DNA of 50,832 nt, the filler included, from Jimgerdemannia flammicorona (lineage: Eukaryota), in assembly GCA_003990765.1 (NCBI GenBank). It is 2 parts of 2 records of this genome, joined end to end, with 100 filler letters (N's around TTAATTAATTAA, not from the genome) between each part and the next. Parts side by side here need not be neighbours in the genome. Positions count along the whole stretch, not along the records: positions 25,474 to 50,832 come from RBNJ01000841.1; 1 more part is not named here. One strand, given 5' to 3'. This document shows positions 7,185 through 46,402 of this stretch, in pieces. The position numbers and the translations under genes were made by a program. Under the pieces are notes generated by a model. That model was not told where the DNA came from. It was given only the letters and a program-made list of their open reading frames with translations, and did no database searches. Every line of letters starts with the position of its first letter. The first letter of the stretch is position 1.

Positions 7185-7635
7185 TTTTTTTTTTTTTTTA
7201 TTCTTTTGAAAAAGAAATTTTAAGATCTGGTCTGTCAACAGTTATGAACCCCTACTACAAAGAGCACCAGTCTATCTATTGTGATAAGTGAATAATATAG
7301 TACATATAGTCAGATGATGTGAGCACTCAGTATAGTATAGTAGGTTAGTTTACTCTTAACTTTATATTTGAGAAGATCTTCCAAACTCAGTCTATTGGTA
7401 TATCTTACATACTAATGAAGAGTCCTTTTACCTTTATGACTGCAGATCATCAAGAAGACCACACTGCCATCTGTAGAGAGATATAGATTCTTAAAACTCA
7501 TTATTTTTTTTTTAAATTTTATTTTACAGACTTGAAGCTCTGCAGATTTTTATTGAAAGAAAACCTAGACTATATAGGCCAAAACCCTCTCCCACCACCC
7601 CCTGAGCACTACACCCTCATTAATCTAGACTAGCT

Positions 7636-7792
7636 TAGTACTCTCAATAAATTGAATTAAATTGAATTTGATCTAAATTCAATTTGATTTGATTTGAACT
7701 TAATTCAAATTGAAAAAACCCCAATTTAATTCAATTCAAATAACTCTCAATTTGATTTAATTCAAATTGATTTAATTCATTTGGAAGCACTA
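7636..7792. mobile_element. hAT-family MITE (157 bp)
   Basis: Termini tagtactctcaat... and ...atttggaagcacta; 8-bp TSD gactagct (7628-7635) / ggctagct (7793-7800). Absent from the uninterrupted family B copy near 43745. TIR resembles that of the large hAT. Confidence 0.85.
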
Positions 7793-8660
7793 GGCTAGCT
7801 ATTGTCCAGCAGCTTGACTATATCAGGTATAGCAGGACTTATGAATACCTATATCTCATTCTATATACTATACTTTTCCTATTATCAGAAAGTAAATAAT
7901 TATATATCTATAACTAAAGACATATACTTGAAATCTCAATATATGTACAAGGCTATACCTAAGCTGATTTATATATGTAGCTCCTGCTACTCTAAGTAGA
8001 GCAACAGATAAAGAAAAACTCTCATCAAAGTATAGAAAGGTAAGTAGAACCTAGTTCTCTTAGAGAAGTGAGTAGAGAACTTATACATAAGATGAAAAGA
8101 GACCTCTAATATCTCATTACTCAAGCCTACAGATCTTGATCATATTACTATATCAGCTCTTAGTTTTAGTTAAATTTAGCTAAGATATCTGATCTGAGTA
8201 GCCTCAGGTCTCCCAATTACCCCCAATAACCAGGGCCCAATCCTATATATTGCTAAAAGTAACTAAGAGTAATATTTATTACTTAACTACTATACTAATT
8301 AGAAGATCTCATCAATACAGTATCCATCTTAGCCCTGATGACTACTTCTAGTCTAATACTCTACTAGTTTATCATAATCACTCTTTCTCTTATCTGTGAT
8401 GGCTATCTCCTCTTCTATCCTGATTCCACCTAAAAAACAGTTATATATCTATATCAGTACTATACTCACTAGAAAGCTTGCCAAAGCTCAGAGAACTTTA
8501 CTATAAATACTAAAGATCTGTAGGTAACCTATACTAACACTTGATGTCCAAGGTCAGCTGATACTCTATACAGCTCATAATATACTCAGATGATATCTTA
8601 TTGATGATAATAAAAAGAAGAAAGTATTATACCAAAATGAGTATATTCTAGATATAGTCA

Positions 8661-14486: not shown

Positions 14487-14521
<35 letters not shown>
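8661..14521 (+). mobile_element. Full-length degenerate L1/Tx1-like LINE (family A, copy 1)
   Basis: ORF1 from ATG 8741 (..IKGVPIV..IAKYGEVIDIGF..). ORF2 from ~10775 has an APE endonuclease (IFSLxVNxL, GNFN, RID, SDH) and RT (xPGEDxL, LLYKNK, FLDQEKxYD, GDxLSxILY, FVDN from FADD, YLG). Poly(A) at 14491-14521; degenerate ~19-bp TSD at 8642-8660 / 14526-14544. Many TAA/TAG/TGA stops arise from transitions. Confidence 0.92.
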
Positions 14522-14525
<4 letters not shown>

Positions 14526-15039
14526 TATATCTCAGATATAGCCAGAAATACTAAAAACTGTAAAAAAGTATAGAAAGTATCAATCTGATACTGATAAAGA
14601 GACAACTCATCACTATTGCCTCTCTCTCACTATACTCTTATAGGTATAGCAAATCAACCTGAGATAGAGAAGATAGAATAAGGGGAAAGGGACTTGGAAG
14701 ATTGTCTATCAATCTTGTAACTAGTATGGTAGTGGATAAAGAACTATTAAAGCCCATTACTCTATCAATTGTAGAATTACTAAATAGAAAATTGGATTAA
14801 TTAGCTCTTTACTTGAGAGTCCATACTGAGTTCCACATAGTTATAGTGGGGATACTTGGAACTCTGCATAATGTCCCTGAGACTATGCTGCATAGTATCA
14901 CTAAGTCTCTTGGTTCCTATTTTGCATCACTTAGTAATATACTTATACCATATGGTACCAGACTCTTGAGTATCCCATAATGAATCATAGGTTATACTTA
15001 TGGTATAAAAAGAGTAGAGTTGGATGATTGGTAATATCT

Positions 15040-20886: not shown

Positions 20887-21863
20887 GGGGGTAGGACGAT
20901 TGGGGTTACAAGATTGACGTCATCACTCTCTGCATTTCTCTCTCTGCAGCCTCAAAAATCTGCTCGGGCACTTCCACCAGTCCTTCCACCTCTCTGATGA
21001 CCCTCCGAATTGCATGATAAATGTGATACTACATAAGTCGATTGTTTTATTCATTTGAAGGTAACATGGAGAGAGTGGTGGAGTGCGATTAGAGGCACCA
21101 GGTTGCAGGCTCCTGTTCCAGGTTTTGAAGCAAAGCAGGAACTAGTTCCATATATTGTACATCTTGTCGTGTCGGAGGGTCTGTCTGGTCGGGGACAACG
21201 GAGAACTACGGTATTACCGTTTCATATATTACTAATAAAAAAATAATGGGTGTAATGTCTGCCGCCGATATCGAGTCTATCTTGGCTAAATATCGAAACG
21301 TGATCCCGAAGGTCATGTTAAATGACTTTATGGAATTGAGCAGAATGCACGGGATTTTTGGCATCTTGTTCATGGAGTATCATATATGGAACCAATGGAG
21401 AATAAGAAAGAAATGATGCAGGCGCTCATCAAACGGCACCCGTAGAAGCAGAAGTTGTAAATTGTAGTTGCATGCACTTTTGAATGAAAATATCCCGTTT
21501 GCCGTGACAATTTACTCGACTACGAACTCGTGGTAAGCTCCTTAACGTCTGCGACTGATATATCATCACTTCAAACATCCCGTGAACGGCATCCTGCCTT
21601 TCCGCCATCCCGAAGACGCGTGCGACAACACCGCCAGCACAACCTTGCAATGCCGTTGCCAACCATAACACGCTTTGCCCAAAACTAGAGTCCTTTGACA
21701 TTGTAGAATGATATTCAACACCAACTGGGGTAAAGCAGAAAAATGCGCCTGATCGCAACCATCCTACGAAAAAGAGAAAAAAAATCAACTCTTTCATTGC
21801 CAATCCTACGTAGCCACATATAGTTGCGGATAATATACATTTTCATTTCCACGCCCAGTACCT

Positions 21864-25373: not shown

Positions 25374-25473
25374 NNNNNNNNNNNNNNNNNNNNNNNNNNN
25401 NNNNNNNNNNNNNNNNNTTAATTAATTAANNNNNNNNNNNNNNNNNNNNNNNNNNNNNNNNNNNNNNNNNNNN
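25374..25473. other. Artificial scaffold/contig linker (44 N + TTAATTAATTAA + 44 N)
   Basis: Exactly 100 bp and symmetric, with a six-frame stop core at 25418-25429. Confidence 0.95.
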
Positions 25474-27004
25474 AAAAAAAAAGAGGTTATTTTGCTTTAT
25501 TTTATTTTTCAGAAAGTAAAAAAAACTGATATAATATAAAATTGGTAGATTTTTTAGATCAATAGTAGTAATATTGATAAGATAAGCAGAATCTTAAGGC
25601 TAAATTTATCTAGACTCAATTCTATATCCCAAGTCTAGTAGATTTCAATTTTAAGATTTGATCTTCTAGAGAGCTAGAAAATAATATTCTATATGCAGAA
25701 TTAAGAAAAAGTAGGATGTCAGTATTCTATTAAGTTTTTAGAAAAGGAATATTAAAATCAATTTTGAACTATAACATTTTTTAAAATCTTCTACTTTATC
25801 AGCTAGTATTTTAAATTTATATCACAATTATATTATTCTAGATACTAAATATAAGAGAAGTTATTCTAGTAATTTAGAGAGAGATATTGAGAGATCAAGC
25901 AAGCTAAGTTTTAACAGATATTTATAAGAAGATATTTAAAGTTCAGAGAGCTGAATTGTATATAAAGCTTGAGCTGAAACTAGGTCTTATATATTAGTCA
26001 GCTATACTTTAATTTATATTAGAGGAATATATTGCTATATTATATTTCTCAACAATTTTAAATTAAAAATTAGATAGGATAAATAGGAGAAATACAGAAT
26101 AGCTATTATGGAGATAACTTTACTTCTCTTCAATACTTCTTACTAGATATAGTGACAAATTTCTCTACTTTATTTAATTTTTAATCAATTTAACACTCTT
26201 TACTATCTATCTCTAAAGAGAATTTTTAGAGGTATCCTAATATTCTCAGTATTCTTAACTTCAGTATTAGCATTCTCTTTAGTTTGATATAGATAGTGGT
26301 CAGATGAATTAAGTCAATCTAGAGTATATTTTTAACTTAGAGGATTTTAGTTTGAGCAGAATATGGCAAAAGTTAGTAATATATTTTTTGAGCTCTCTCA
26401 CTCATATTGATCAAGATATGATATCTGTTTTACTCTATATAGTCAAATATAAAAAATAGTATACTCCAAAATCTGAAAGTCTATTTTATAATTTGGCTTA
26501 TAGTATTAAAGTTTCTCTAAAGTTTAATATAATAATAGTATTTTATTCAAATCAACCATATGGCTTATTAGTTATAAGAGATGAGAAAGTTTTAAATAGT
26601 CTATTATTGAATATTTGTTACAAAAAAATCTATATATCTAATAGTAGTTTTTTATATTATATCATAAGTTTAGACATTTGACAGAAGTTATATATATATA
26701 ACTCTATTTAGAAGAGTAATGTTTTTTATCAGGAGGATTTTTTTTTAAAAAAAAAATTGCCTTTTTTGGCAGACTTACTGGCTAATCTATACTGAGTGAC
26801 TAGAGATTCAGTTTATTATATAAAGAATTTCTATAAATTCTAGCATATTGTAAAATAAATTTAAGCTAGTTCAAATTTATTATATAATAAATTCAAATTA
26901 GTTCAAATTTATCATATGATGAATTCAAACTAACTTGAATCAATTATATATATAATTGGTAAATTTAAATTAAGTTCAAATTTTCCTACTCAATAAGAGT
27001 ACTA
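25474..27004. mobile_element. Right-hand part of a hAT-related element carrying dioxygenase copy 2 (left end not seen before the gap)
   Basis: Ends ...caataagagtacta at 27004, the same TAGT(A/G)CTC TIR as 27392, 43042 and the MITE. Subterminal atcatatgatgaat at ~26911 also occurs at ~27436 and ~42983. Confidence 0.65.
25540..26650 (+). pseudogene. Decayed TET/JBP-like Fe(II) dioxygenase, copy 2
   Basis: Manual translation gives NYIILD..REVILVI, ILSIL and SSLTHIDQDMISVLLYI..LFYNLAYSIKV..NIIIVFYSNQP(Y from H)G. HxD at 26403-26411; the distal His codon would read TAT at 26559-26561. It aligns without gaps to the C-terminal domain of the minus-strand gene at 40390-40700. Confidence 0.65.
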
Positions 27005-27499
27005 GCTACTATATACTTAATAATTAAATATATAAAAGCTCTCAGTAGATTTTTTTTTTTTAGTCAATAACTAAAACTTATATTAAATAAAAAGAGATTG
27101 AAAATAATAATAAAGTAATTCTAAAATTCTGAATAAGTATATATTATCAAAGATTAGATATCTAAAGAATATTTTATATAATAGATTACTTTTTAAGTTT
27201 TTTTTAATAATCCTTAGATATATTTCTTAGTAAATTTCTTAGTAAATATATCTATATATTAATAATTTCCTTCTACCTCTTATATTGACTAATTTTTTTA
27301 GCAATTATTAATTAATTAATTTTTTTTTCTATAAGTACTAAATTCTTTTATTAATAAATCTATAATAAATATATAGCTCTTATACTATACTTAGTACTCC
27401 AAATGAGTCAATTTGAATCAAATATAGATTTAATTCATCATATGATGATTTGATCTAAATCTCAAATCTGAAGCTATCTGAATTAACTTAAATTAATCT

Positions 27500-27752
27500 G
27501 AATCATCTAATCCAAATTATCCCATCCAAATTATCCATCTGAATTACCCCATCTGAACCACCCCATCTGAACCACTTAATCTAAATTACTCAATCCAAAT
27601 CACTTAATCTAAATTACTCAATTCAAATCACTCAATCTAAATCACTTAATCTGAATTATCTAATTTGAATCCTTCAATTTGAAACCTCATCTAAATTCTT
27701 CAACTAAATCCTTCAATTCAAATCTTCTAATCCAAATCCTCTAATCTGAATT
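27500..27752. repeat. ~14-bp subterminal tandem array of the hAT left end (approx. ATC(C/T)(G/A)AATCAC(C/T)(C/T)A)
   Basis: About 17-18 degenerate units such as atctgaaccacccc and atccaaatcactta. The variation fits an ancestral ATCCGAA core. Confidence 0.8.
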
Positions 27753-28324
27753 CTTTACATAACTCATATACCAGATATATCTATATATACAATATATATA
27801 CATATAAAATGTATACATATAAATATGTAAATATATATATCAACAGATCAGTCTTCAATAGTTTACAGTACTGATGATACTTCAAGTCAAATATCTCTAA
27901 TAGTTCCACACCTTCTATACAATCCTTGCTCTGAAATCTGACAATATTGTACTAAGATAGGAGATAATATTATTTGTAACTATTACAGGTAAAAAATTAA
28001 AAATAATAATAATAAGATATATCTATGATATAACTGACACTTTGTTTAACATATATATGATACTGTTTCATCTATCTCTTTTATTAACTATCTATAACAT
28101 GCCACATGTCCTCATACAATATCAGTAGCCCCATTCTACCTCAATCTCAACCCACCTTCACACTCACTCAGCCTTGCACCTTTAGGGTGTGAGTTGTGAT
28201 TTTACTGCCCAAGTAACTAGATCCTTCTACTCAGCCTGTCCCACTCAAGAGTGGGTATAGGTTGTGAGCCCCAATCACCTCAAGTACTTGGCATCTAGTA
28301 TACCTGACCTATTCTTATTAGTGC

Positions 28325-28733
28325 CTCCTGTCTTGCCTGTCTTGCTCATCTTGCCCATCTTGTCCAGCTTGCCCATCTTGCCCATCTTGTCTGCCTGTAT
28401 TGCCCATATTGTCTGTATTACCTATATTGCTATCTTGCCATCTTGTCCATCTTACCCATCTTGCCTGTCTTGCCTATCTTGCCTGTCTTGTCCACCTGTA
28501 TTACCTGTGTTGCTTATATTGCCCATGTTGTCTATATTGTCTGTATTGCCCATATTGCCTGTATTGCCTGTTTTATCTGTTTTATCCATCTTGCCCATGT
28601 TGCCTGTCTTACTGTCTGCCTATCTTACCCATCTTGTCCATCTTGCTGTCTTGCCATCTTGCCTGTCTTGCCCATCTTGCCCACCTGTATTGCCTGTGTT
28701 GCCCATGTTGCCCATGTTGTCTGTATTGCCCAT
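28325..28733. repeat. 9-bp minisatellite (ttgcccatc/ttgcctgtc/ttgcccatg), left part
   Basis: Directly visible tandem units that continue after the LTR element. Confidence 0.95.
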
Positions 28734-29511
28734 TATAAGTACACAACCTCCAAGCTACCAAAATTGCATGTCATCCTCAGAACCAATTTGGAAACTACAT
28801 ACAAGACTACAAAACAAGTTACTGAAGAGATCATCTGGTTATACAAAATACATCAGCAAACATGAGAACCTACTGCCAAGACACAAGAATACCAGAAGAA
28901 GTACTATAACCATAAGACCAACTCTGAATCTCTATAACTAGTTTGGTATACTATACTATTATAAAAGAAAACTGAAAGTACCAAACTCAAACCAAGACAA
29001 GAAGAACCCTATCTCATCCATCAAGAGTTCATAAACTATACTTATCAAACTCAAGACCAAGATATACCATAACTATATAAGACCTCATTACTTAGCAGAA
29101 GCAAAATACATTTGAATAACTCTGTTCACTCTATCTGTATCATCTCCATTGGAGAATGACAGATGCTTCATCTGAACTTAAGAAAGCTGACATTGTCAAA
29201 ACCAATCTCAAGCCATCTACATGACAGATATTACTACTAGAAATTGTCTCGAATTATAGAAAATATCATTTCCAAGAGGTTTGAACCTCCAGCTGTAACA
29301 TTGGGAGCCCTCATCCTAGACAAGAATGGTCAGTTCTTACAAATGTACTAGCAGGCCAAAAAAAAAAGAGAACCAAGATCTGTTATCCTTATATGACTAC
29401 TGCCACCAAGGACAGCCTTAATCTTGTAAGAGATAGAAGTGATGATACCTTAAAACTGATGATGTCAGAAGTCAGAAAACTGCTCAGACTTTGCCAGAGA
29501 TGATGTCATCA

Positions 29512-30724
29512 CACCCCTTTCTCTGCTACCTTACTGGTCACAATAGTTTAGTAGGCAACCTTCCAAGTCTACTTTCTACAATTATTACCCTCTCTACTTT
29601 GGATTAGTTTGCTGTACCTATTGCAGGGCAGTGGGAGGGAGGCAATAGTGATAAGTTGCTCCTTTATCAGTGTCAGATCAGTGTCTTCTCCACTTTTTTG
29701 CAGTTTCTGGTGCCTTCAGCTGCATCTGGAGTGCATTTGTTTGGTACAGTGCCTTCTTCCTTTTGCTGTCACCAACAAGGTGCTGTCTTGGTATATCTTG
29801 GGCTATGTAGGGAGTCGGCTGACCTTGGGCATCAAGTGCTCAGTATAGGTTATATGTAGGTCCTCAGTGCCTATGATAGGGCCCTCTGGCTTTGACGAGC
29901 TTCCCGGCGAGTGTGGTTCTGGTATAGGTGATTGCTTTTCAGGTATTGTTGGGATGGGAGGAGAGATGACCATCACAGATAGGAAGAAGAGTGATAATGG
30001 TGAACCAGTGGGGTACCAGGCTAGGGGTGGTCATTGGGGCTGGCACAGACAATATTTTGGTGGGGCCTTTTGATTGGCTGGTGGGAGGTGGAGTGGTGCA
30101 GGGACCGGTATCCTGGCTATACCCAACTGGAACCAAGAGCTGATGCGGCAACACAATTGAGACCTGCAGGCTTGAGGAGTGGGGCCTTCCTCATATAGCT
30201 ATATCTGACTGGAACTGGGAGCTGATATGGTAATGTAATTGAGGCCTGCAGGCTCAGAGAGTGGGAGTGGGGTCTTTTCTGGCCCTAGCCCATATATAAG
30301 TCCTTTGTGGAAGGTTCTGCATATAAGTTCTTTACTCACCCACTTTGAATTCACTTTGCTCTCTACTGGTTAGTTGGGGAATTTTTCTTTTGCCTCAGGC
30401 TTTCTTTTGAGGTTTGGGGGGCTATTCTTTATTCAGTTCTGGTGCTGCTAGATCTGACACATAGGTGTGCTCTCATATATAAATGATGATCCAGTCCTGG
30501 TGAGCAGACAAGTCTAGTCTATGTTGTAGGGGTTAATGTAGCTGGTATTTGACAGGCATAGCTGGAGCAGTAAGACTGCTAGATAGTTTAATAGCCTAGA
30601 TTAATGAGGGAATATTGTTCAGTGGGTGGTGGGGGAGGGTTTTGGCCTATATAGTCTAGGTTTTCTTCCAATAAAAATCTGTAGGACTTGAGTCTATTAA
30701 AAAAAAAAAAAAAAAAAAAAAAAA
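29512..30724 (+). mobile_element. Family B non-autonomous retroposon, copy 2, inserted in the 5' LTR
   Basis: Starts cacccctttctctgctacc; poly(A) at 30699-30724; TSD gatgatgtcatca (29499-29511 / 30728-30740). Absent from the 3' LTR. Confidence 0.9.
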
Positions 30725-33489
30725 GATGATGATGTCATCAATAGTGATGTCATCAAAGACTAACCAGATAGCATCTAAATCTATAAATAGCTTAGCAGTC
30801 ATAGTATAGTTAGATTAGCCTTATACAACATGACTGTGAACTGACTCAGTAGTCAGATAATCTCTTAATATATCAGATCACCCTTATACTATATAACTGC
30901 ATTCTAACTCAGTAAGGTACTAAGTGTTACATCCATATTCAGCATAGTCCAGATAGCCCCTCACTAGTATAAATACCCCTTCCTCCAGACCTCAGAATCT
31001 CAGACTTGAATACTTGAACAATTTAAATATAACTTCTGAGCACTTCTCCACAATATCCCTTTATACAACTACTCTTAGTATAATAATATCATGAATAGTA
31101 AATAAACCTATTTGATAACCCACAAACTATTCTTAAGTAAATCCACTCCCCATTAGGTCTCACTTCTAACCCCATTATGAAATTTCCTAATTGAGTATTG
31201 TCTGCAGCAATATGCTAATTCAACTAAGCTGGTCTTAGTTTCTTGAACTTTCTGAAATATAGAAAATCCCAAATATTCAGAACTAGTCCAAAAAAGGACT
31301 TTGGTTGAGACATCAATCCGATCTTGAAATCAATAAGCATAGAGGATATACTCCATATGAAATTAATCTTGACCTTAAGAAAATGGTCTTCCAGAATATC
31401 CAGAACTTCCAGAAAACTCTTCCAAAACTATGTAATGGTTACTCTAAAAAGTAACTCTTTTACAACTTGGTAGCAGTGATTTACAATCCAATTCTGCTTC
31501 AAGATGCTTCCTCACCCCACTACAAACCCTTTTGAGAATTCCTATAAGTTGGTATAAAGCCCAACCTCTGAACTGGAATTATTCTGAACCATCTGACAAT
31601 CTGGAGAGAATTGAACCTGACATATAAGGATAATTTGACCTCCACACCTGCAACAAGTGGGACAAACTTCATTCAAAGAAAGAAATACTCTAGTTAAATC
31701 AGCAAATAGGTAAAACCCTATTCACTGAACTCCTTGCTCTACACCCAGCAAGTCAAGATGAAGAAGGTCTTATAGAAGCCTTCTTTACTCTTCTTAATAA
31801 GAGTTTTGTCAGCTCCACAAATCTGAGCAACCTAGGACAACCAGCAGCAGTCTTTCTAGTCTTAGTTTCTCATAAAGCCCAAGCCTCTGTAGTCAAGTGG
31901 CTCAACTCTACTGACTTTCACAATACCAGGACCAAGATCGCATTATACTACCATTTCCAGAACAGCAAGGCCTGCCATATTCTTAAAGAAGTAAGAGAAA
32001 CCCTTTATCAACTACCCAACCCTGAACCAGAAGCAGGCCCTGCTACAGCTCTACCTGAATCTGAAACTAATACTGAACCAGAACTTGACTTTGAATTAAG
32101 TCCATCCAAAATCAGATATATATGTAACTGATTCTGTCTACTTCAATACTAAGCAAATCCAACTATACAGAGACCAAACTGAAGAGAAGGAGGAGTATCT
32201 CAGTGAATTTGATCCTGAATACACCACCAAAGGAGATGCACCTCCATCAGGACAGAACACACCTACACTGCAACAAATAGCTATCTATAAAGCTCTTACT
32301 CCAGACCCACAACTACTACTCCAGCAACTTATACAAATCCAAAGAACTCCACCATACTCTGCACCAGTACCTCAAGTAGTACCAGTAACACCACTACCAG
32401 CAGTCCAACCACCTCTAGTAAACAACATGGTGAACCAATAGATTCTAGACCTCACAGCCCAGGTAGCAATAATAGCAGCAACCATTACTACCTTAGCCAA
32501 ATAGACCTGACCTACCAAAAATCTGAGTCTACCTATCTTCAATGGTACTGTACAAGAAGTCCAAAGCTTTATTAGTATAGTTGATACCAACTTTGAAGCC
32601 AATCAATGGACTAATGAGCAAGTTGCTGACCATCTTCTGATAAACAATCAAGACCACACTCTGGAACAACTCTTTGCTACCACTACAGCCTATGTCTGCT
32701 GAGTTGTTACATTCTTTCAAGGACCTACTGAAGAATGGTGGTGAACCCTTTCTGAAAAACCCCTCATATAGGACACCTGACCTGCAGTAGTCACTCAGAA
32801 TATAGCAAATAATGCCCCAGGATATGGAGCCCATCCTGCAGTCCCTGGACTCAAACAACTCATGATTGCTCAATACTATAGTGAAACTATAATTGCTAAA
32901 TCTTGAGTGAAACTCTGCAATCTCAAATTTAATATATATGGCAAAGAAGAATTCAAAACCTTCTATACAAAACTCAAGTTACTCCTGAATACTGTTGGCC
33001 TAGGATATATTACCAATGATGAAGCACAAAACAGTATAAGAGCAGACCATTTATTTGATGCCCTGCCTGAATGGCTTACTAGAAAAAACTGAGAACAAGG
33101 CTACCCAGTTGGTTGTAATTACCAATAATAGTATCTAGCAAGAATCAAGACTATGGTTAAGCAAATCCTAACAGCTGGACCAATTCTGCCTCAAAGACAA
33201 TTCAACAACACGGAAAAAACTTAGATCAAGAAAGAAGAACCTAAGTATAAAGCATCCTAAGCTCCCTCCACATCCACCTCTTGGATATCCAGAAATCATA
33301 AACTCATCCAGCCAAGTACCTTCAAGAAACTCACTGAAGGTAAAAGAAATGAACTTTGAAGAAGCAGAGCATGCTTCTATTGTCAAAAGACAGGACACAT
33401 GACCAGTACCTGCCTCAACTAAAAACCCCAAACAGCAACATGAGCAACTGTTACTACTCTGCACCACCTCAATAACCTGACTACCAGAA

Positions 33490-33901
33490 CACTGGACTTT
33501 GTCAAGTTAAGGCAAACTGCTAAGGCCCCAACCAAAGGAAGTCAAAAAGCAGCTAGATATGACCTGTATGCAGCTGAAGAAGCTACAGTTTTCAACTGAG
33601 AAGTTAAGCAAGTCTACACAGGAATCAGTATCCAAATCCCTAAAGAACATATTGGAAGAATATACTGTCACAGCAGTCTAGCATTGAAAGAACTCTCAGT
33701 AGAAGGAGGAGTCATTGATGAAGATTATACAGGTGAAATTATTGTTCTTATCCGAAACCACAGTTGGATACCCTTTAAGATCCCCATTGGTTTCTGTATT
33801 GCCCAGATCCTATTCAAAAAAATTGAGTCAACTCTGATAGTCAAGGAAGTCCCTGAACTACTGCCCACCATCTGAGGAGCTAAAGGATTTGGCTCATCAA
33901 A
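33490..33901 (+). pseudogene. Retrotransposon-borne trimeric dUTPase domain
   Basis: VKLRQTAKAPTKGSQKAA(R from G)YDL, TGISIQIP, GRIYCHSSLA, GGVIDEDYTGEI, IAQI and *GAKGFGSS correspond to dUTPase motifs I-V. Confidence 0.93.
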
Positions 33902-36359
33902 TAAGGCCCCAGCCCAACCTACCATGAACAAAGAAGAATAATTCTATAAGAAAATTGAAGACAGATATGTACCAAGTGGCTGATGTTCCCATGGTATTGG
34001 AATGCACTCTTCCCAAATGATTGATGATTGCTTCTTTTGTGTCAATGAACTGGCTCAAAGAAGAACCAACAGAAGGAAAGCCTCAATAACTGAAATAACC
34101 ACCATTGGATCAGACAAACTGCTTATACTTCAAGCTTTTGTCAACTGAGTACCTGTTAAGATTATGATAGACAGTGGTACCTCAGACAACTTCATCAATG
34201 AAGAAACAGCCAACAGACTCAAGGTCTTCATCTCTCCAGTATAACAAACTCAAGCAGTTGCTACAGCTGATGGAACCTCACATGTTATTAGCAAGAAAGT
34301 CCACAATCTGCTCTTCCAAATTAGTGACTACTGAGTACATATTACCCTCCAAATTGTACCACTTCCTGATAATGAAATTATCCTTGGAACTCCATGGTTG
34401 AAACAAGAGAACCCTATGATCAATTGGGTAAACCATTCTCTGACCATCAAAAAAGGATGCCACAACTTCAAACTATAAGGTGAAAAGGATCCACTCAGTT
34501 CTACTGACCCTGGACCAAAGATCACCCACATCAATAAGCTACAGCTTAAGAAATTGGCCAAGAAATGTCCTCTCTTTGCCATCTCCATCCATCTATCCAA
34601 AGGAGAACCTGAGAACTCTGAAGAAGACTTTTCCAAAGTTGATAGCCATGTCAGACCACTACTCCAGAAAGTCTGAGATATATTTCTGAACTGAACCACA
34701 GAACCACCTGCACCTGTCATTATTAATAACTAAGAAGAGTATGAAGTTGAACAAATCCTCAACAAACATAGCCACAAGAATCATCCAAATGGTACAATAA
34801 CACTAGAATAAATTAGAAGACCCCAATGAGGATGTCGAAAGCTAAGAAGGAGAGAGTTATAAGCACATAACCTCTAAGTTATCAAAATTGCATGTCATCC
34901 TCAGAACTAATTTAGAAACCACATACAAGACTACAAAACAAGTTACTGAAGAGATCATCTGGTTACACAAAATATGCCAGCAAATACGAGAACCTACTGC
35001 CAAGATACAAGAATACCAGAAGAAGTACTACAACCATAAGACTGACTCTGAACCTCTATAACTAGTTTGGTATACTGTACTATTACAAAAGGAAACTGAA
35101 AGTACCAAACTCAAACCAAGATAAGAAGGACCCTATCTCATCCATCAAGAGTTCATGAACTGCACTTATCAAACTCAAGACCAAGATATACCATGACTAT
35201 ATAAGACCTCATTACTTAGTAAAAGCAAAACACATTTGAATAACTCTGTTCACTCTATCTATATTACCTCTATTGGAGAATGATGGATGCTTCATCTGAA
35301 CTCAAGAAAGCTGACATTATTGAAACCAATCTCAAGCCATCCATATGATAGATATTACTACTAGAAATTGTCTCAGATTACAGAAAATATCATTTCTAAG
35401 AGGTTTGAACCCCCAGCTATAACATTGGAATCCCTTGCCCTAGACAAGGATGGCCAGTTCTTACAAATGCACCAGCAGACCAAAAAAAAAAGAGAACCAA
35501 GACCTGTTATCCTTGTATGACCACCACCACCAAGAACAGTCTTAATCTTATAAGAGATAGAAGTGACGATATCTTGAAACTGATGATGTCAGAAGTCAGA
35601 AAACTGCTCAGACTTTGCCAGAGATGATGTCATCAATAGTGATGTCATTAAAGACTAACCAGACAGCATCCAAATCTATAAATAGCTTAGCAGTCATAGT
35701 ATAGTTAGATTAGTCTTGTATAATGTAACTGTGAACTGACTCAGTAGTCAGACAATCTCTTGATATATCAGATCACTCTTGTACTATATGACTGCATTCT
35801 GACTCAGCAAGGCACTAAGTGCTACATCCATATTCAGCATAGTCCAGATAGCCCCTCATTAGTATAAATACCCCCTCTTCCAGACCTCAGAATCTCAGAC
35901 TTGAATACTTGAACAATCTGAACACAACTCCTGAGTACTTCTCCACAATATCCCTTTACACAACTACTCCTAGTATAGCAATATTATGAATAGCAAATAA
36001 ATCTATTTAATAACCCACAAACCACTCTTAAGTAAATCCACTCTCCATTAGGTCCTACTCCTAACCCCATCACGAAATTTTCTAATTAGGTATTATCTGT
36101 AGTGATATGCCAATTCAACTGAGCTGGTCTTAGTTTCTTGAACTTTCTGAAATATGGAAAATTCTGAATATCCAGAACTAGTCCAAAAAAGGACTTTGGT
36201 TGAGACATCAACCTGATCTTGAAATTAATAAGTATAGAGGATGTACTCCATACAAAATTGATCTTGACCTTAAGAAAACAGTCTTCTAGAATATCCAGAA
36301 CTTCCAGAAAACCCTTTCAGAACTATGTAACAGTTACTCTAAAAAGTAACCCTCTTACA

Positions 36360-36940
36360 CTCATGTTGCCCATATTGCCTACTCATGTTGCCCATGTTGC
36401 CTGTATTCTGTATTGCCAATGTTACCTGTTTTGTCCATTTTGCCCATTTTACCTATCTTGTCCATGTTACCTGTCTTGCCATCTGCCCATCTTGCCCATA
36501 TCACCCATCTTGCCATCTTATCCATCTTGCCTATCTTGCCCATCTTACCCATCTTGCCTGTCTTATCTATCTTGACCATATTATCTATCTTGTCATCTTG
36601 CTATCTTATCTGTCTTACCCATGTTGCCTATCTTGTCATCTTGCTATCTTGTCTGTCTTGTCTGTCTTGCCTGTCTTGCCCATCTTACCCATCTTACCTG
36701 TCTTGCCTATCTTACCTATCTTACCTATCTTGCCTGCCCATGTTACCTATGTTCTCTATGTTGTCTATGTTGTCTATTTTGCCTATTTTACCTATGTCAC
36801 CTGTCTTGCCATCTATCCATCTTACCTATATCACCCATCTTACTATCTTGCCATCTTATCCATCTTGCCCATCTTACCTGTCTTGTCCACCTGTGTTGCC
36901 CATGTTGCCCATATTGCCCATGTTGCTCATATTGCCCATC
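36360..36940. repeat. 9-bp minisatellite, right part
   Basis: Same units as 28325-28733; the array is split by the Ty3 insertion (TSD cccat/ctcat). Confidence 0.95.
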
Positions 36941-38373
36941 TGGATCATCACCCCTCATAGCAGAGGAAGTTGTTAGTGAGCATGGATCCACTCAACCTAG
37001 TATATGTGTCTGCTTGCTTGCTGTTTGTCATTGCCTTAGTACTTTTCTCCAATAAATAACTTGAAAGTGTGTTGTAAAAGTGTGTATAACATAAATTGTA
37101 GCAGAGAAAGGTACTGTTTCATCTATCTCTATAAACTGTATAGCCAGAAGTTCAAAATGCTTAGTAGTTTGACTTCAAATATATATTGATACATAAAAGA
37201 CAAATACTCTAATAAAATCAAAAAGAATACAGAGATAAATAAAATTAATATCCAAGCTATGGTGAGTATATTTATCTGATTGCCTGACCATTTCTATACC
37301 AATAACCCTATTTAATCAAAAATATTTAACCATACTCTTTAGCAGAATTTCAAAATCAGCTCATTTACTTAATTATATATACAGACCAGCTATTCACAAT
37401 CATCGATAGTGATCAATTATATAGCATCTTTGGTTTTCTTAAGCATGATTTATATTTGCTAAGTACTAATACTATTTGCAAAGATATCTTAGAGGTCTAT
37501 AGGAAGGAGTATAATAATCTCTACCAGATACTTCAGATAAAATAAGAGCAGCACTATGACCTTTGCAAGCTGAATTATATATATATATTTATAAAAGAGC
37601 TCACCACATTCAATAAGTATAATTTGGCAGACAAAATTTCATTTACAATCAACATATGGACATTCTCTAATGTAATTTCATTTCTAAGTATTACTGGTCA
37701 TTAGATTGATCTCAATTGATAGCTTAAATCTCTCACCCTTGACTTCATCAAACTTGCTGGCACTCATTTTGGAGAAAACATTGCAGATGCTTTTATTAGT
37801 TATATCTGAGAGCTTGGGATCACAACTAAGATAAAAAAGGGGGGCTTACTATCAGGTTGGTATTTTGAAAGAGGTTCTAAAACAAACAGATTTTATTGAT
37901 TATTTATTTTTACATAAATTTGTCAACTGAATATTTCAAGTACAGATTTTGACCATTATGACAGACAATGCCACAAACAACTTAACATTTTTCCAAGTTT
38001 TAGCAGATAGTCTCAAATAGAAAAATATGACCTTTAGTGTAGAAAGCTACTATATACAATATCAGGCCCATATACTGAATCTCACTATTCAGGACTATCT
38101 TATGTATATAGACAAAACATCTGAGAGAAGAGGGGCTCTGAGTATAGTTTCCAAGCTATACAAACTGGTTGTATCAGTCCAATCATCTCTACAATGACAA
38201 GACAAATTCACTATACAGTATAGAATAATTAGTTTAGCCTTAAAAGAACTAATATTAGATATCTGTATACATTGGAACTTAATATTTACAATGATCCAGC
38301 ATGTATTGGAGTTTGCTGTAGTATACATTCTTTTTTTTAGTCAGCTGAAGTAACTTGTTTTGGATGATGGAGA

Positions 38374-38407
<34 letters not shown>

Positions 38408-39629
38408 CAAAAAAAGCCAATAGATTTAATGGTTGCTGCTGATAAGGAAATGCAAAGTAAGGCTATAAGTAAAAGTGAGTGGAATGTACTTAGGAATATT
38501 ATCAGAGTTTTGAAAGTAAGTAGTAATTGCTCTAGCTCTATACTTATTTTATCTATCTCTATATAATATAATACCTCACTACACATAACTACCAGTGTTT
38601 TAATAATTGTACAAAGGATATAGTAAAAAAAAATGACTCTAACAATAAGCTCTACAATACCAGTATACAATCTTTTGATTGACTGGCTAGAGAATAAGCT
38701 TGAGGACAGACTGGAGGGTAGTAGTGATTTATAGTTAAGCCTAGATCAGAGAGATGCCATAGAGGTTGCTCTAAGCAAACTCAGAAAATACTACTCTAAA
38801 ACAGATGCTGCTGTATACTCAATCAGTATAAGTATATCAGTATATAGCTATTGTCTCTTTCAAAATAAAGAAACCCCTACAAAACTCACTCTCTTTCTTC
38901 AAACAGTACTAGACCTATGCTTAAAGCTATAATACCATAAATATCAGAGCTGAGAGCAGTACTATATTGAGGAAACTAAGTGGGCCATAATCAAAACATA
39001 TGTATCAGAAAAACTATATACTACTGCAAAGTTCTGGCTGAAGTCCAGACAAATATGCTAAGAGATCTCTCTTGTTCTATATTTACTTCAGCAGAAAGAG
39101 GAAGAGGGAGCAATTAGTGGAAGAGCTGCTGTCAATAGACAAACTCACCATTTACCTTACCAGTGACCATGTGATCCTGCTGGAGGGTGCAGAGGTGCTC
39201 AACTAGTAGAAAGTAAGTTGTTAGGCAGGCAGTTGATTATGTTGGACCAATTTAATCCACCAATCTAACTACTATTCTAACTACTGCTCTACCCACTAGG
39301 GCATATAGCTGCAGTTATGTCAAATGAATTTCCCCAATCTGTATAGTATGGCTTAGGACTACTTGACAATTTCTGCCACCAGTACTCTCATTGAGCAGAT
39401 GTTCTCAAGTAGGGTAGATCTCATTGCCCCTAAGAGGTGTGTACTGAATATTAAGACAATCTAGGTATATATGTATCTGAAATCTTAGTGGGGTATAGAC
39501 TGCTAAAATTTGGCAGGTTCTAGAGTTTACAAATAAGTTAATTAGCCTTGTGGATTATTTAATAATTTAAAATAAAAAGGAAAAAAAAAAACTGAGGGCT
39601 TGGTCTGGAGTTTGTGGCCTGAATAGGAC

Positions 39630-40125
39630 AGTGGTTGGCAGGGTTGATGATAGTAGAGGGAATATGCAAAATTTGTGGTCCTCTATATATATATAGTATA
39701 GGGCAGCCCCAAGCTATCAGTGTTCAGGTCAGTAGATAGGGTTGGCAGAGAGAGTGTACAAAATTTGCAGCCTTTTACTGATAGTAAGAGATAGCTCTAA
39801 GTTACAAGTATCTGGGGCAGGAGAGGTTGGCAGAGGGGGTGGGGTAGGCAGAGAGAGCACATAAAATTTGCAACCCTCTATCAGCAGTATAGGGCACCCC
39901 CAAGCAGCCTGTGCCTGGGCTGGGGGGTCAGTGGGGTTGGCAGAGAGAGTACACAAAATTTGCAGCCCTCCACTAGTAGTAAAAGAGATAACCCCAAACT
40001 GCCAAGGAGTCTGAGTCTGGGTTAGAGAGTACTTCTAGTGGTTAGAGGGTGCTTCTGGCAGTCAAGAGTACTTCTAGTAGTCAGAGGGTACTTTTGGTGA
40101 TCAGAGAGTGCTTCCAGTAGTTGAA
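39630..40125. repeat. Composite repeats between the convergent hAT genes: four ~100-bp units, then five ~20-bp units
   Basis: ggcagagagag..caaaatttgcagcc recurs at ~39650, 39745, 39847 and 39939; (g)tcagagggtacttctggtg-like units at 40021-40120. Confidence 0.8.
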
Positions 40126-40387
40126 GTCTACTACAAATTCAGACTCTGTCACTAGTTCAGATCCCACAGACACTCTGGTCCTACACTGTAGTACCACACT
40201 GGTGGCACTATAAGAGTAGGACCAAAAAATCAGTAGGGCCCAGTATAACAGCTATACTAGTGCTACAGAAAAGAGACACCTGGCTGCCAGCCCAACTCCC
40301 CCAAAAAAAGACTGTCCAATCTATACAAAATAACTGCTGAACCCTTATAAAAGATTGCCTAACCCTTACAAAAACTGCTCCACCCAC

Positions 40388-42685
40388 TAGTTCCAGACCT
40401 TGATGAGTCTATTATCCATTATAAGTATAATAACTATTGTATCTGAGCTCTCCTCAAAGGTGATGGTACTGTGGTAGTCATGTAATTAGAATAGGACAGC
40501 TATGTTGGCTACAAATAAAACTCTAAAACTATAGATAAGATCATATCAGACTTTGCTACTATTCTTCCAAGTTGGGCCCTTCCTTTTTGGAATATAAAAC
40601 ATTACCAGAGTGATGTTGTTGTCTATGTGTGTGGGCAGAGAAATGTTGTGCCTGATATATCCTGATACATATGACCTAAGCATATGGTTAGATAAATCCT
40701 TGGTCCAGGACTTCATACTGCTAGACAGTACTAGAGGATACCTATTCTTCATCAAGCTCCAGGAGTTCTGACTTAGAAACCTGCTCAAAATGGATAGCAT
40801 CTGGTTTCTTTTTGCATATAGGAGGCAGAAACTCAGGGCTATATTCAAAAAAGTAGAGCTCCTCACCTCTTTTTATATATATATATATATAGATAAATTA
40901 ACTTGTTTATTGATAAACTACCTCTATCATATCTCTGCAAAAGACTAGATAGATGAACATATCAGCAGATTCTCCAACTTGTATGATCAAACTTATACTC
41001 TCTATAACCCTACAAATGTTTAATTCTATTTTGTACCAATCATAACACTATATTTTATCAGTATTTATAACTATTTTATTGCAACAACACTGTTCTTAAC
41101 CCACTTCTTTATCATTACAAGGTTCTCTATAGATGATATATTTTCTCTGGAGCTTCTCACCTCATACAGCATATTAAATTACACTAAGAATATATATATA
41201 GCTATGCAGAGATCACTACTAAGCTGGTCTGTTATATGCTCTATCAATCTGCTCAAAGAATCCAGATTATAGTTGCTATTACTATATAAACTATATTATG
41301 CTTATATGTAGTTTGCTCTTTGATAGCACTTTTAAAGTTCTGATAGGGGTATAGAATCTTGTACATTTCTAGAATTATATCAAAAAGAGTATATTGATAA
41401 AAGATTGATTATCTGAGAAGAAAATAAAATAAAAAAAAGGAAGATAAGTACAGGGGATTTTGAAACTCTAGAACCCACTCTTTGTCAGTATTGCAGTATA
41501 CTCAATTCTCATGTAAATCTCCTCTTCTTGCTTTTTTTGCCCCCTCTTTTCTGCCATCTAGTATTTGATACAATCCTCATAAATCTTATTAATATAGTAG
41601 TAAAGCTCATCACTATAGAGATTTCTTATCACTATCATAACCACATCTCTATAATCATTAATAATAATATAGTTCTCTTTATTATTAAATACTCTTACTG
41701 GCCAATAGGCCTCTTGGTTGAGAATAATTGGCTCTGATTCAAATATAGATCCATAAGTCTTAATAATGATACTAGTACTACTCATGCTAAATATCTTACT
41801 CTTGAATTCCTCTATTTAATCAGATGTCAGACATAGTTGAACTTAGGTAACTTTGAACTCTCCTTTCTAATAGAACTGAGCCCTGATATAAGGGACCAAG
41901 ATAAGTATATATATAGATAGATTATATATAGGCAGGTTGCATGCAGACAGATTTCATATAGATGAGTTTTATACAGATGGGTTTTATATAGATGAGTTGT
42001 GTATAGATAGGTTGTGTATAGACAGGTTGTATATAGGTATCATATGGGTGTTTTTAGGAGAGACCACATAAAAATGAAGTTAAATAAAATACAAAGATAG
42101 GCATTTCAGAAAAAGAGTATAAGTGAGTGAGTTGCATACTAATGAGTTATACAAGTTATATAAGATTGCTTATAAATGCTTACTTTTATTCCTTTTGAGA
42201 CCTCTATCATATGATGTATTGACTCAATAGATTAGTTATCAAAGATATGCCCTGCAACATCTACCAGCCTTTCTTTATCTTAACTAGATATTGTGAATAA
42301 AGTTGGCAGATCTTACTGTAGAGCTGTGGACCCTAAGAAAAGTATAAGGTGAATTGGGTTATACTAGAGGAAATTAAAAAAGTAAATACAAGTAAATAAG
42401 TAATAGTAAAATGAGTAATCTATATCTACTATTGGCTGCTTCAAAAAGGCTACTGTATATATAGCTGTAAGGTCTGTAAATCAAGGTCCAAAGAACTGCT
42501 ATAAGTTGTTACCAGAATTCTCCCTCATCCCTGCCATTACTATTGCTATTGCTACTGTCATTACTACTACTATCATCTCTTTGGCTCTCAATGAGCAGCT
42601 TGTATACTGCCCATATGAGAAAGAATCTAATATTATTAGCAGAGAGTACATTTCTATCTCAAATACTCTCTCTTTTAACAATCAT
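40388..42685 (-). pseudogene. Decayed TET/JBP-like Fe(II) dioxygenase, copy 1, multi-exon, inside the hAT element
   Basis: Reconstructed exons read FKVT*VQLCLTSD*IEEFKSKIF..ENYIIINDYRDVVMIVIRNL..KRG..IYMRIEY|..NLVMIKKW|GYREYKFDH..|..MLSILSRFLSQNSWSLMKNRYP..YVSGYIRHNISLPTHIDNNITLVMFYIP..WKNSSKV*YDLIYSFRVLFVANIAVLF*LHDYHST..IVIIL. HxD at 40621-40629; distal His at 40471-40473. Putative introns at ~41451-41369, 41100-41010 and 40921-40869. The 5' exons are tentative. Confidence 0.72.
41930..42040. repeat. 15-bp tandem repeat (gatgagttttatata-like), probably intronic in the dioxygenase gene
   Basis: About 7 degenerate units. Confidence 0.75.
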
Positions 42686-43603
42686 TATAGAGTAAAAAAA
42701 TAAGTAGACTGGACTAATATATGATTAAGAGCTGTTGTTTTATTTGCTTGTGATATAGCAGAAAAGAAAAAGAATAAAGAAAAAGAACAAAGAAAGAATA
42801 AAAGAAAAGAGAGAATAAAAGAAAGAGTAATATCACCAAAGTATAGCAGAAAAAAAAAATAGAGTAAAAAATAAACAAAAGAAAGAGTGATATCATCAAA
42901 GATTTTATATAATCAATTTAGATAGATCAATTCAGATCAATCCAGATCAGATCATAAGACCAATCTGAGTTGATTTAAATCCATCATATGATGAATCTGA
43001 ATTGAATCTCATCTGGATCAATTTCATTTGTTTAGAGTACTAACTATACTGATAGCTTCAATTTAACTTTACTTTATTTCACTCCAATATACTCTCTCTC
43101 CCCCATCTTTATCTTTTTAAAAACTACTAAATTGTTAATTATCTCTATCTATCTTACTACTTCTTTTATATATCTCTTCTATTAGATATATATAATGATC
43201 TTCTTAAGAGCCTCACTCCCTCTACTAGTCTGATAGAATGTCTACTATCAATCTCTCTTATCTTATTATTCTTTTTTCCAAAACTATCTATCTCTCATTC
43301 TTAAACATATACTACTTATGTTCAACCAACCCTACTTATACATCAATATCTACCTAACAGTAAGTTACTCATTATTAATATATCCTACCAACTACTCTCT
43401 CAAGTTATCCTATCTCTCTCCCTCTCTACTATTTCACTACTTTATCCTCAGATGACCTCCAACTATCATCAGTATCTTACACTTACCCAATTAATATTCA
43501 AGTATCTATATAAACTCTCTGTAATCAATTTTTTTTATAGAACCCTCACACTAATTTAGCTAAGCTATAATTTGATATTACTTTAACTCTTGTCAATTTC
43601 TGC

Positions 43604-43633
<30 letters not shown>

Positions 43634-43637
<4 letters not shown>

Positions 43638-44803
43638 TTAATAGACTCAATGTCTTACAGATTTTTATTAGAAGAGAACCTAGACTATATAGGTCAAACC
43701 CCTCTCCCACCTCTCTTAAGCACTATATCTCCATTAAACTTAGACTAGTTATTGTCCAGCAACTTGATCATATCAGATGTAGCAGAGTCTAATATAACCT
43801 ATACCTCATTCTATATATCATACTCTTCCTACCACTAGGAGAAATTAACCATATATCAATAACCAAAAGTATATATCTAAAAGCCCAATATATATATAAA
43901 GCTATGCTCAAACTAAATAAAATAACCTCTGTCATCTTAAGAAGAATGACAGATAAAGAAAAAAATCTCTCTCAAAGTATATTACAATAGATAGAACCTA
44001 GTTCTTCTAGATGAGATAAGTAAAAGACTTATATATGAGATAGAAGAAGACTCCCAATACCCCACTACTCAAGCCTACAAACCTCAATCATATTACTATA
44101 TTAGTTCCCAATTCTAGTTAAGTATAATTAAAACACTTAAAATAGGTAATCTCAGACCCCTCAACCTTTTCAATAACTAAGGCCCAATCCCATAAATTGT
44201 CAAAAGAAGTTGTAAATAATACTTACCACCTAACTACTCTATATCAATCAGAAGACCCCACTAATATAATATCTGTCTCAGCTCCAATAACTACTTCCAG
44301 TCTGATACTCTACTAATTCATCATTATTATTTTCTATCTATAACAACCATCTCTCCTCCCATCCTAACTCTACCTAAAAAACAATTATCTATATTAGAAC
44401 TGTACTTACTAAAAAGCTCACCAAAGTTAGAAAATTCCACTATAGATACTAAGAATCTGCAGATAACCTATACTGAGCACTTAATGCCCAAAGTTAACAA
44501 ACTTTCTATATAATCTATGATATACCAAAACAACACCTTGTTGACAACAACAAAAAGAAGAAGACATAATACCAAAACAGATATATCTCAAATATAGCCA
44601 AAGATATCAAAAACTGCAAAAAAGTAAAAAAAATACTAATCAGACACTGATAAAAGGACAACTCATCACCATTGCCCTTCTCTCACTGCACTCATACAGA
44701 GACAACAAACCATACTGAAATAAAGGATAAGAAGTTAAAAAAAAAAAAATCCAGACAGTTGCCTACCAAAACTACATAACCAGTATAATAGTAGAGAAAG
44801 AAG
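43634..44803 (-). mobile_element. Family B non-autonomous retroposon, copy 3
   Basis: Collinear with copies 1 and 2 from the tail (atagactcaa..ctagactatatagg) to the same 5' end (reverse complement cttctttctctacta). Confidence 0.85.
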
Positions 44804-44920
44804 CTGACTTGTACATATCTTTAGGATTACTTCATTTACTGAGTCCACAACTTGTCCATTGTCTTAAGAATTTGGATACATTCATCCCAATTGCAAACGG
44901 GCCTTAACTGATCTGCTTAA

Positions 44921-46402
44921 CTAAGCATTGTCAATTCTTTGCCCCTTCTTTTTCGAGTTCTTTATCAGGGACTCCTTGGTCTCCATATCATTAGGTTGTG
45001 CGCGTGGTGGGGTCTCGAGCCCATCGTTGTCATCGAAGTCAGCGTTGAGTTCCAAGAGTAAGGCATTGACCATGCCCTAATGTAAAATGATGATCAGCGA
45101 TCTCTTGTGCCATATTAAACATTGAATGAGAAAAACGAAAACTCACCCGCACGTTCCACGCCCACCTCAACGCACCCCTCAAATTGTGATAGGCCGAATA
45201 GGTGAGTGGAAGGGTAAAGGCCTTTAGAAGATGGAGACGGTACACCTCATGCTTCTCCATCAAGTAGATCCGGACTGTCGTCATGTAGGTCTGATCCAAA
45301 ACCAACAATACACATAAATGTATTCTACATCAGATCTTCGCGCCTAAATTTGAACATAGAATGCTCATTACGTATCGCTACTACACCTGAATTCCAAGGA
45401 TATACAGTCGTGACCCATCTCTGACGGAATCACGGAACTTCGACTGCAGGTCATCCAGCATATCCTTCATCATCCTCGGCAGGTTGAACTCATCCGAGGC
45501 CATCTTGGTGATGCTGTAGGCGTGTGGTCCACCGCACGCCAGCGCACAGGCAACTTCATACTGTTCGTAGATACATAGGAGATCTGCCATGTGACCTCGT
45601 TCGACTTGCTGAATGAGAACATCCTTGTTGCGATTGCGACGGCGTTGGGTGGCCAGGACAGAGATCTCTCCCCTTAGCGATAATCAAGGATTATAAAAAT
45701 CATTATCATTCTTTATACTGATGGAGAGAAATTGCAATTTACCACGGGTGCGACAACTGCCATCCAGTTTCAGGACGCCTTCGAAAAGAGGGACAATATA
45801 GTTACCGAACCACTCTCGCTCAAAGCAGTCGTTCTGCTGCAGAGGATTTCGTTGGGACTCAAATGCGTCCAGACTATGGCGGTGAAACCAAAAAGTAATC
45901 AGCTTAAGCTGAAGAAGTCTGTCATAATAATAATAAATACAAGTAATCTTGTAACATACAATTGCCCTGTCGCTCGCTCGATCCAACGTCGAATTTTCTC
46001 CCAGTCTCCCTCTGCGTACGAGAACTCGCCACTGTTCTCGAGAACAGGCAGACTACGGAGGGTGTTCCATTTTGTGCGAGCTTGTGATAGATCCACGGGC
46101 AACCTCTAAATAATAATTAAATAATAAAAGTTGTCAATACATATTCAAACCAGAGTTCCACTTTCCATAACCCAAACATCATTCTTACTCTTTGACCAGA
46201 TTGTCCGAATAAATGAGTAATGATGGATTCGATCTCAGTATGGTAGGCCTTTCGAACTACATCGGGTCTGTCTGCCACCAACTGGTCCCACTGTTCACCA
46301 AACTCGCCCTGGATTTTCGACGATGGCGACAGATCCAGAATGAAGTCGTGGGCCGGACTAACAAAAACAAAAAATAATTAGAGAGTGAGCTATTAGTGGT
46401 AC

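Follow-up and report, generated by a model that had tools for sequence, protein, structure and literature searches.

The window analysed here is a stretch of 50,832 nucleotides, filler included, from Jimgerdemannia flammicorona (assembly GCA_003990765.1). At positions 27392–43042 it holds a decayed transposon with a hAT transposase pseudogene on the plus strand and, convergent with it, the remnant of a second gene on the minus strand. We read this element as a dead hAT carrying a divergent Tet/JBP-like dioxygenase pseudogene, whose live copies would have oxidised 5-methylcytosine (5mC), and we give this reading about even chances. The two-gene, convergent layout had been proposed in a preliminary description of this DNA and is supported here.

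The element is bracketed by TAGTACTC/GAGTACTA ends and by a perfect 8-bp target-site duplication (TSD), ACTATACT, at 27384–27391 on the left and, identically, at 43043–43050 on the right. The terminal inverted repeats (TIRs) have eight perfect bases. The left core, TAGTACTC (27392–27399, plus strand), aligns with the right end as well as with the termini of a miniature inverted-repeat transposable element (MITE) elsewhere in the window, the right core (43035–43042, minus strand) reads GAGTACTA on the plus strand, and the subterminal regions of both ends align with each other. The TIRs and the perfect duplication named in the preliminary description are thus read where it had placed them. The 8-mer TAGTRCTC is not rare by itself, with 10 matches against 3.58 expected, a number that was reached in 1 of 100 shuffles. 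The palindrome CATCATATGATGA lies ~45 bp inside each end (27435–27448 and 42981–42994); its three sites in the window give six strand matches against 0.15 expected, and six were reached in none of 100 shuffles. The left subterminal region also contains 14-bp tandem repeats (27510–27746, plus strand).

The presence of a hAT transposase on the plus strand, likewise claimed before, is confirmed by a Pfam match to the hAT dimerisation domain (Dimer_Tnp_hAT, PF05699; E 3e-5, 24.2 bits against a cut-off of 21.4) at ~39321–39482. The 3' part of the transposase pseudogene extends from 37131 to 39464 and ends in a stop codon at 39462–39464. Here the frame of 37130, with 33 stops in 783 codons, is the least interrupted (the other two have 57 and 73) and contains hAT motifs recognised by eye at 37958–37981 and 38066–38083; the dimerisation domain sits in a second frame. 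A BED-finger-like transposase start (C-S-E-I-stop-Q-Y ... I-C-N-Y-Y) was read by eye at 27927–27986 on the plus strand, a stretch that has no Pfam match, and the same reading, again by eye, resumes at 37163–37195 past a nested insertion. The decayed transposase frame gave no hits among 7998 scored candidates in a word-index protein search and none against PDB sequences, and the DDE catalytic core and the BED finger consist of by-eye motifs only, with no match in the Pfam, PDB and word-index searches. We file the element under the hAT superfamily because of the 8-bp duplication, the short TIRs and the dimerisation domain.

The minus-strand gene and its decay

The second gene occupies part of the interval from the transposase stop (39464) to the right subterminal repeats. 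Its verified part, a pseudogene for an Fe(II)/2-oxoglutarate (2OG) dioxygenase-like, Tet-like protein, occupies 40372–40768 on the minus strand and has seven in-frame stops and one frameshift near 40668. We searched 1.84 billion representative proteins by phmmer with a 399-residue read-through of one minus-strand frame, in which stops were written as X, and only two proteins matched: P0002 (136 residues, E 9.2e-38) and P0003 (134 residues, E 7.3e-14). Both are singletons, encoded by short open reading frames (ORFs) on ENA metagenome contigs of 823 bp and 1009 bp. By tblastn, residues 36–133 of P0002 align to 40665–40372 with 65 of 98 positions identical (E 2e-42), and residues 3–35 align in another frame within 40768–40670 (alignment 40768–40625, E 2e-6); the frameshift is deduced from this split over two frames. 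To judge from these alignments, the minus strand at 40372–40768 holds the remains of a real gene. P0002 can serve as its natural, intact counterpart, through which the family can be studied without reconstruction. Further relatives were scarce. A word-index search with P0002 found no longer protein among 455 candidates and, among two candidates of similar length, only P0002 itself; 124 pattern matches in JGI metagenomes, scanned with an alignment of P0002, P0003 and the window copy (A1), yielded no confirmed member; an ESM Atlas query with a 108-codon ORF of the window returned no usable hit; and no further copy was found within the window.

The key residues of P0002 are H48-x-D50, the pair G72 and G73, H100 and R121; H48, D50, H100 and R121 do not vary among the three sequences. 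The HxD motif reads H-T-D in P0002 and P0003 and H-I-D in the window copy, where its codons occupy 40629–40621 and those of the distal His 40473–40471. The layout of HxD, GG and distal His that had been described earlier is therefore present in P0002, and in the window the HxD and the His are kept and the GG has decayed to S-K. About 50 residues separate HxD from the distal His of the iron triad, as in the Tet/JBP layout, and on sequence grounds the layout and spacing of P0002 are those of the facial triad of small Fe(II)/2OG dioxygenases.

Upstream of this part the gene is less well defined, and the earlier outline of the gene holds for the remnant at 40372–40768. A start ~350 bp from the right TIR, near 42690, is not borne out, since 41830–42700 shows no coding signal and consists of tandem repeats and low-complexity sequence, and the intron structure was not confirmed. 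Of the reported 'M..WGYR' motif we find only L-stop-G-Y-R, at 41015–41001, by eye and in a frame that differs from that of the verified part; it belongs to a candidate N-terminal motif, H-L-stop-G-Y-R-E-Y-K-F-D-H..., read by eye at 40971–41018 on the minus strand. An 85-codon open frame farther upstream of the dioxygenase remnant (41558–41815, minus strand) has no Pfam match. GC-richer tandem repeats, three of ~100 bp and five of 20 bp, lie between the convergent 3' ends of the two genes (39700–40140).

A comparison of the window copy with P0002 shows the direction of its decay. Among 131 aligned codons 44 differ; C>T or G>A changes in the window copy account for 40 of these differences, the reverse direction for two and either of two transversion controls for none. 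The seven in-frame stops fall at W, Q or Y codons. It follows from these directional differences that the window copy was ~97% identical to P0002 before decay. In the present sequence, 22 of the 44 inferred C>T changes are followed by A, 9 by C, 8 by G and 5 by T; with only 8 of them before G, the decay was not confined to CpG. The C>T pattern at 40372–40768 could reflect either many CpG sites hit on both strands or a CpA preference like that of repeat-induced point mutation (RIP) alongside CpG loss. Classical RIP was considered as the sole cause of decay and not adopted, because CpA/TpG is not depleted in the block and CpG is nearly zero, although half of the inferred C>T sites have A as the next base. 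The observed/expected ratio of CpG is 0.00–0.12 in all 19 one-kb bins of 26001–45000, compared with 0.82–1.14 across 17 one-kb bins of genic sequence. The methylation-linked erasure of CpG suggested in the preliminary description agrees with this ratio and does not cover the decay outside CpG. We leave the process as G:C>A:T hypermutation, with CpG erased.

Identity of the encoded protein

The fold of P0002 was approached through its ESM Atlas neighbours. In the feature comparison, two unnamed basidiomycete clusters are nearest (0.95 and 0.93), followed by a cluster named 'Tet-like 2OG-Fe(II) oxygenase' (0.91, 178 shared features), in which 72% of the members carry PF20515, and then by a cluster at 0.88 with Tet_JBP in 11% of its members. 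In the structure comparison, seven of the ten listed rows are clusters named for or carrying 2OG-Fe(II) oxygenase families and three are unnamed basidiomycete clusters; the template-modelling (TM) scores span 0.54–0.63 over the listed rows, and one row at TM 0.61 has Tet_JBP in 28% of its members. These model-based neighbours support a dioxygenase fold and lean towards Tet, and they do not prove membership.

A second line of comparison comes from the excerpts of Kojima 2025 (PMC12730594) used here, in which one class of transposon-borne Tet/JBP-like proteins, the PE type, is recovered only with HHpred and structure prediction (AlphaFold DB) and has HxE as its hallmark. The PE-type proteins of Agaricus, Laccaria, Gymnopus and Pezizales transposons resemble the protein described here in being missed by ordinary sequence searches and, in a hand comparison, in the block G-G ... 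G-x-R ... N-[ST] ... Q-P-x-x-L-H-G-T and the tail G-L-S-x-x-T-x-x-R-L. Counted by hand, not with a tool, against entries of Table S1 of that paper, 10 of 31 ungapped positions in residues 72–102 of P0002 equal those of the block that closes with L-H-G-T in the Agaricus PE entry Zisupton-22_AB, and P0003 shares 6 of 10 positions with the tail of the same entry. The PU-type sequences of the table fit P0002 less well than the PE type by eye, and the G-Y-R of the window, in a third frame, resembles by eye the G-x-R motifs that precede HxD/E in PU and PE entries alike.

Several results count against a Tet/JBP-like identity. Searched at E up to 10, P0002, P0003 and the short window translation match no Pfam family, PF12851 (Tet_JBP) and PF20515 (2OG-FeII_Oxy_6) included, and the six frames of 39500–43042 match none either (the minus-strand frames at E up to 1), with the limit that the HMMER filters remove most hits above E ~0.1. 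P0002 is therefore like these two families in its Atlas neighbourhood, where clusters carrying them lie near it (0.91 and 0.88 in features, TM 0.61), and unlike them in that neither profile matches it, P0003 or the window translation. A profile of A1 gave four hits against PDB sequences, all at E 0.69 or worse, the best a coatomer and none a dioxygenase. AlphaFold2 run on three-row alignments reached a mean predicted local distance difference test score (pLDDT) of 37.6 and 36.0, and the models were unusable, so that the structural evidence consists of the Atlas model of P0002 alone (pLDDT 0.69). Prolyl-hydroxylase-type and other 2OG clusters match the Tet-bearing row in TM, and Tet is not singled out. 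By eye, no Arg or Lys is seen where PU-type sequences have the R-x-G-x-S strand, and in the by-eye alignment the invariant R121 lies later than the position of the 2OG-binding strand. The PE hallmark is HxE (PMC12730594), and the protein here has H-T/I-D. Finally, the N-terminal half of the gene was read by eye only. The earlier designation as TET/JBP-like is borne out in the 2OG-dioxygenase layout, to which the Atlas neighbours add weak evidence; no Pfam family, PF12851 among them, matches.

The same observations bear on a neighbouring explanation, in which the gene is cargo of the hAT and encodes another Fe(II)/2OG oxygenase (prolyl-hydroxylase-like, AlkB-like or of a family of its own) whose substrate is not methylated DNA. 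It would account for the missing Tet_JBP or PF20515 match, for the seven structural rows, 4–10, that are prolyl 4-hydroxylase, 2OG-FeII_Oxy_3 and Oxy_5 clusters with TM scores (0.54–0.63) equal to that of the Tet-bearing row, and for the basic residue not seen by eye at the usual 2OG-binding position. However, the best family-bearing cluster in features is the 'Tet-like' one and another carries Tet_JBP, the by-eye block similarity is to PE-type Tet-like proteins, and in the excerpts of PMC12730594 Tet/JBP proteins are the sole 2OG oxygenases reported as passengers of fungal DNA transposons. We consider this explanation unlikely, although the least so of the alternatives to a Tet/JBP-like cargo.

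Cargo status, nested insertion and surroundings

That the gene travelled with the hAT is an inference from a single copy, which is a further point against the reading that we favour. The gene may instead belong to a separate element that entered the hAT before the decay of both, for example a non-autonomous Helitron or another transposon carrying a Tet gene. The interval from the transposase stop to the right end measures 3.6 kb, far above what a hAT needs, and the GC-richer repeat block at 39700–40300 is unlike its surroundings. Around 39600–42900, inverted repeats and duplications that would mark separate ends did not exceed chance. The best candidate pair of ends, an inverted pair of 19 nt with 89% identity (39516–39534 and 41457–41475), was rejected: no duplication flanks it, and by our own estimate chance alone would produce about one such pair. 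Helitrons leave no TIR or TSD, and the absence of own ends therefore proves little against a nested Helitron. The six frames of 39500–43042 contain no recognisable second transposase or Rep/helicase, and both genes are heavily decayed, the later retroelement much less; these points count against a separate element. On the other side, the excerpts of PMC12730594 report PE-type genes from Helitron, Zisupton, IS3EU, EnSpm and Plavaka elements, not from hAT. Taken together, a separate nested element, such as a Helitron-like carrier, appears improbable but conceivable.

Still less probable, in our judgement, is a Pack-type capture, that is, a fragment of a host gene that was never of use to the transposon. 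Only ~131 codons are verified, the part upstream being unproven, and P0002 and P0003 are seen only as short ORFs on small contigs. On the other hand, the ~97% identity between intact P0002 and the pre-decay copy is a better fit to a young multi-copy family than to an old host gene, and the association of Tet genes with transposons is widespread in fungi (PMC12730594).

Under the reading of the gene as Tet/JBP-like cargo, a canonical hAT making an 8-bp duplication would have inserted into a eukaryotic, probably fungal, genome. On its opposite strand, from the transposase stop to the right end, it would have carried the gene, now a pseudogene, for a small Fe(II)/2OG dioxygenase-like protein, which would be a divergent Tet/JBP-like enzyme nearest the PE type of fungal DNA transposons. 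In live copies, going by family resemblance and the published account, the enzyme would have oxidised 5mC on the DNA of the element, which would oppose methylation silencing and the deamination that follows it (C>T decay). Escape from methylation silencing is also the role proposed for Tet cargo in PMC12730594. After insertion, G:C>A:T hypermutation would have stripped CpG and many other C and G, and a derivative of a long terminal repeat (LTR) retroelement would later have split the hAT inside the N-terminal zinc-finger region of the transposase. The suggestion that the cargo protects the present copy from methylation fails, as both genes are pseudogenes and neither can work, and an action on N6-methyladenine (6mA) or on thymine is not supported. 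In this copy genome defence prevailed: CpG is gone and both genes are full of C>T/G>A changes.

The nested insertion at 28080–37130 (plus strand), reported earlier, is well founded. It is bounded by a perfect 19-bp direct repeat, TACTGTTTCATCTATCTCT, at 28061–28079 and 37112–37130, has LTR-like direct repeats of 92% identity, and encodes on the plus strand a dUTPase (~33519–33899, E 4.2e-27) and an aspartyl protease of retroviral type (RVP_2, ~34083–34457, E 4.9e-9); neither a reverse transcriptase nor an integrase turned up in it. LTR elements usually make duplications of 4–6 bp, and the 19-bp repeat is much longer. The nested element is far better preserved than its host hAT and is therefore the later arrival. 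Arrays of a 9-bp unit lie on both of its flanks, at 28327–28733 (40 copies) and 36431–36941 (58 copies), outside the 92%-identical repeats. Its LTR-like pieces recur inverted to the right of the hAT at 43652–43711 and 44331–44576 (90% and 72% identity) and, by eye, beside the MITE at ~7540–7600; the hAT copies thus adjoin ends of the family of the nested retroelement.

The MITE, 158 bp in length, occupies 7636–7793. Its ends are of the type TAGTACTC ... AGCACTA, it aligns with both ends of the hAT, its subterminal A/T-rich repeats resemble those of the hAT, and its flanks, GACTAGCT/GGCTAGCT, form an 8-bp duplication matching at seven of eight positions. Because it has the same end type, the hAT family left non-autonomous copies. 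An additional right-end-like GAGTACTA is found at 26997–27004, ~390 bp to the left of the hAT, accompanied by the palindrome with one mismatch at 26909–26922. It lacks a left end to pair with and a duplication, as far as could be found, and the region 26850–27004 may be a truncated copy.

The window is eukaryotic DNA. It includes genes for proteasome subunits that are split by introns (Pfam Proteasome, E 2.8e-11 to 9.2e-22), with subunits at 48.7–50.6 kb. These genes and an ankyrin gene lie in regions with 44–57% G+C and normal CpG, and the transposon nests form two blocks, at ~8–21 kb and 26–45 kb. Within the former, the 12-kb repeat block at 9001–21000 has zero CpG and a constant, strong GC skew of +0.26 to +0.50, G far exceeding C on the plus strand, with no matching AT skew. 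Two runs of 44 N each, at 25374–25417 and 25430–25473, flank TTAATTAATTAA and make a gap at the left edge of the second nest.

Comparison with known transposons

The preliminary description knew of no association between hAT elements and Tet genes, a statement that is outdated. Kojima 2025 (PMC12730594) reports Tet/JBP genes in complete fungal DNA transposons of 11 lineages, hAT included, and among them, in the excerpts used here, 20 TET-positive hAT7 families from six species of Puccinia, with duplications of 7 bp and cargo of the PU type. Full-text literature searches for hAT elements with Tet genes showed no second paper among the matches listed. Puccinia hAT7 and the element described here share the hAT superfamily and, beside the transposase, a Tet/JBP-type dioxygenase gene, a putative one in the element here, but they differ in several ways. 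The hAT7 elements have a 7-bp TSD and consensus sequences starting with CAACGG or CAGCGA, whereas the element here has an 8-bp TSD and starts with TAGTACTC. The hAT7 cargo is of the PU type, with a G-W-R-K motif and HxD, whereas the cargo here is nearer to the PE type by eye. In three hAT7 families the Tet gene is upstream of the transposase and points the same way (PMC12730594), instead of lying downstream and convergent as in the window.

A more specific proposal, which we regard as possible but rather doubtful, is that P0002 and its relatives form a fourth type, as yet without a name, of Tet-like dioxygenase borne by transposons, related to the PE type, with HxD kept and invisible to Pfam, captured independently by a hAT with an 8-bp TSD in a fungal lineage that is sparsely sampled in public protein sets. 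If this is true, hAT would have become a Tet carrier twice independently, and the range of transposon-borne Tet-like chemistry would be wider. As far as the excerpts of PMC12730594 go, the element extends a published pattern of Tet-carrying fungal transposons instead of opening another. Its novelty lies in the pairing of a canonical hAT that has an 8-bp TSD with a Pfam-invisible, PE-like, HxD-bearing dioxygenase family with almost no public relatives. If the Tet/JBP-like reading holds, this hAT lineage and this family would join the catalogue of Tet carriers and would support the capture of a demethylase-type gene as a recurrent strategy of transposons.

Compared with the canonical hAT elements Ac, Tam3, hobo and Hermes, the element described here has the same 8-bp TSD, short TIRs, subterminal repeats, C-terminal dimerisation domain and derived MITEs. 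It differs from them in carrying a second, convergent gene and in the state of the present copy, which is pseudogenised and split by a retroelement.

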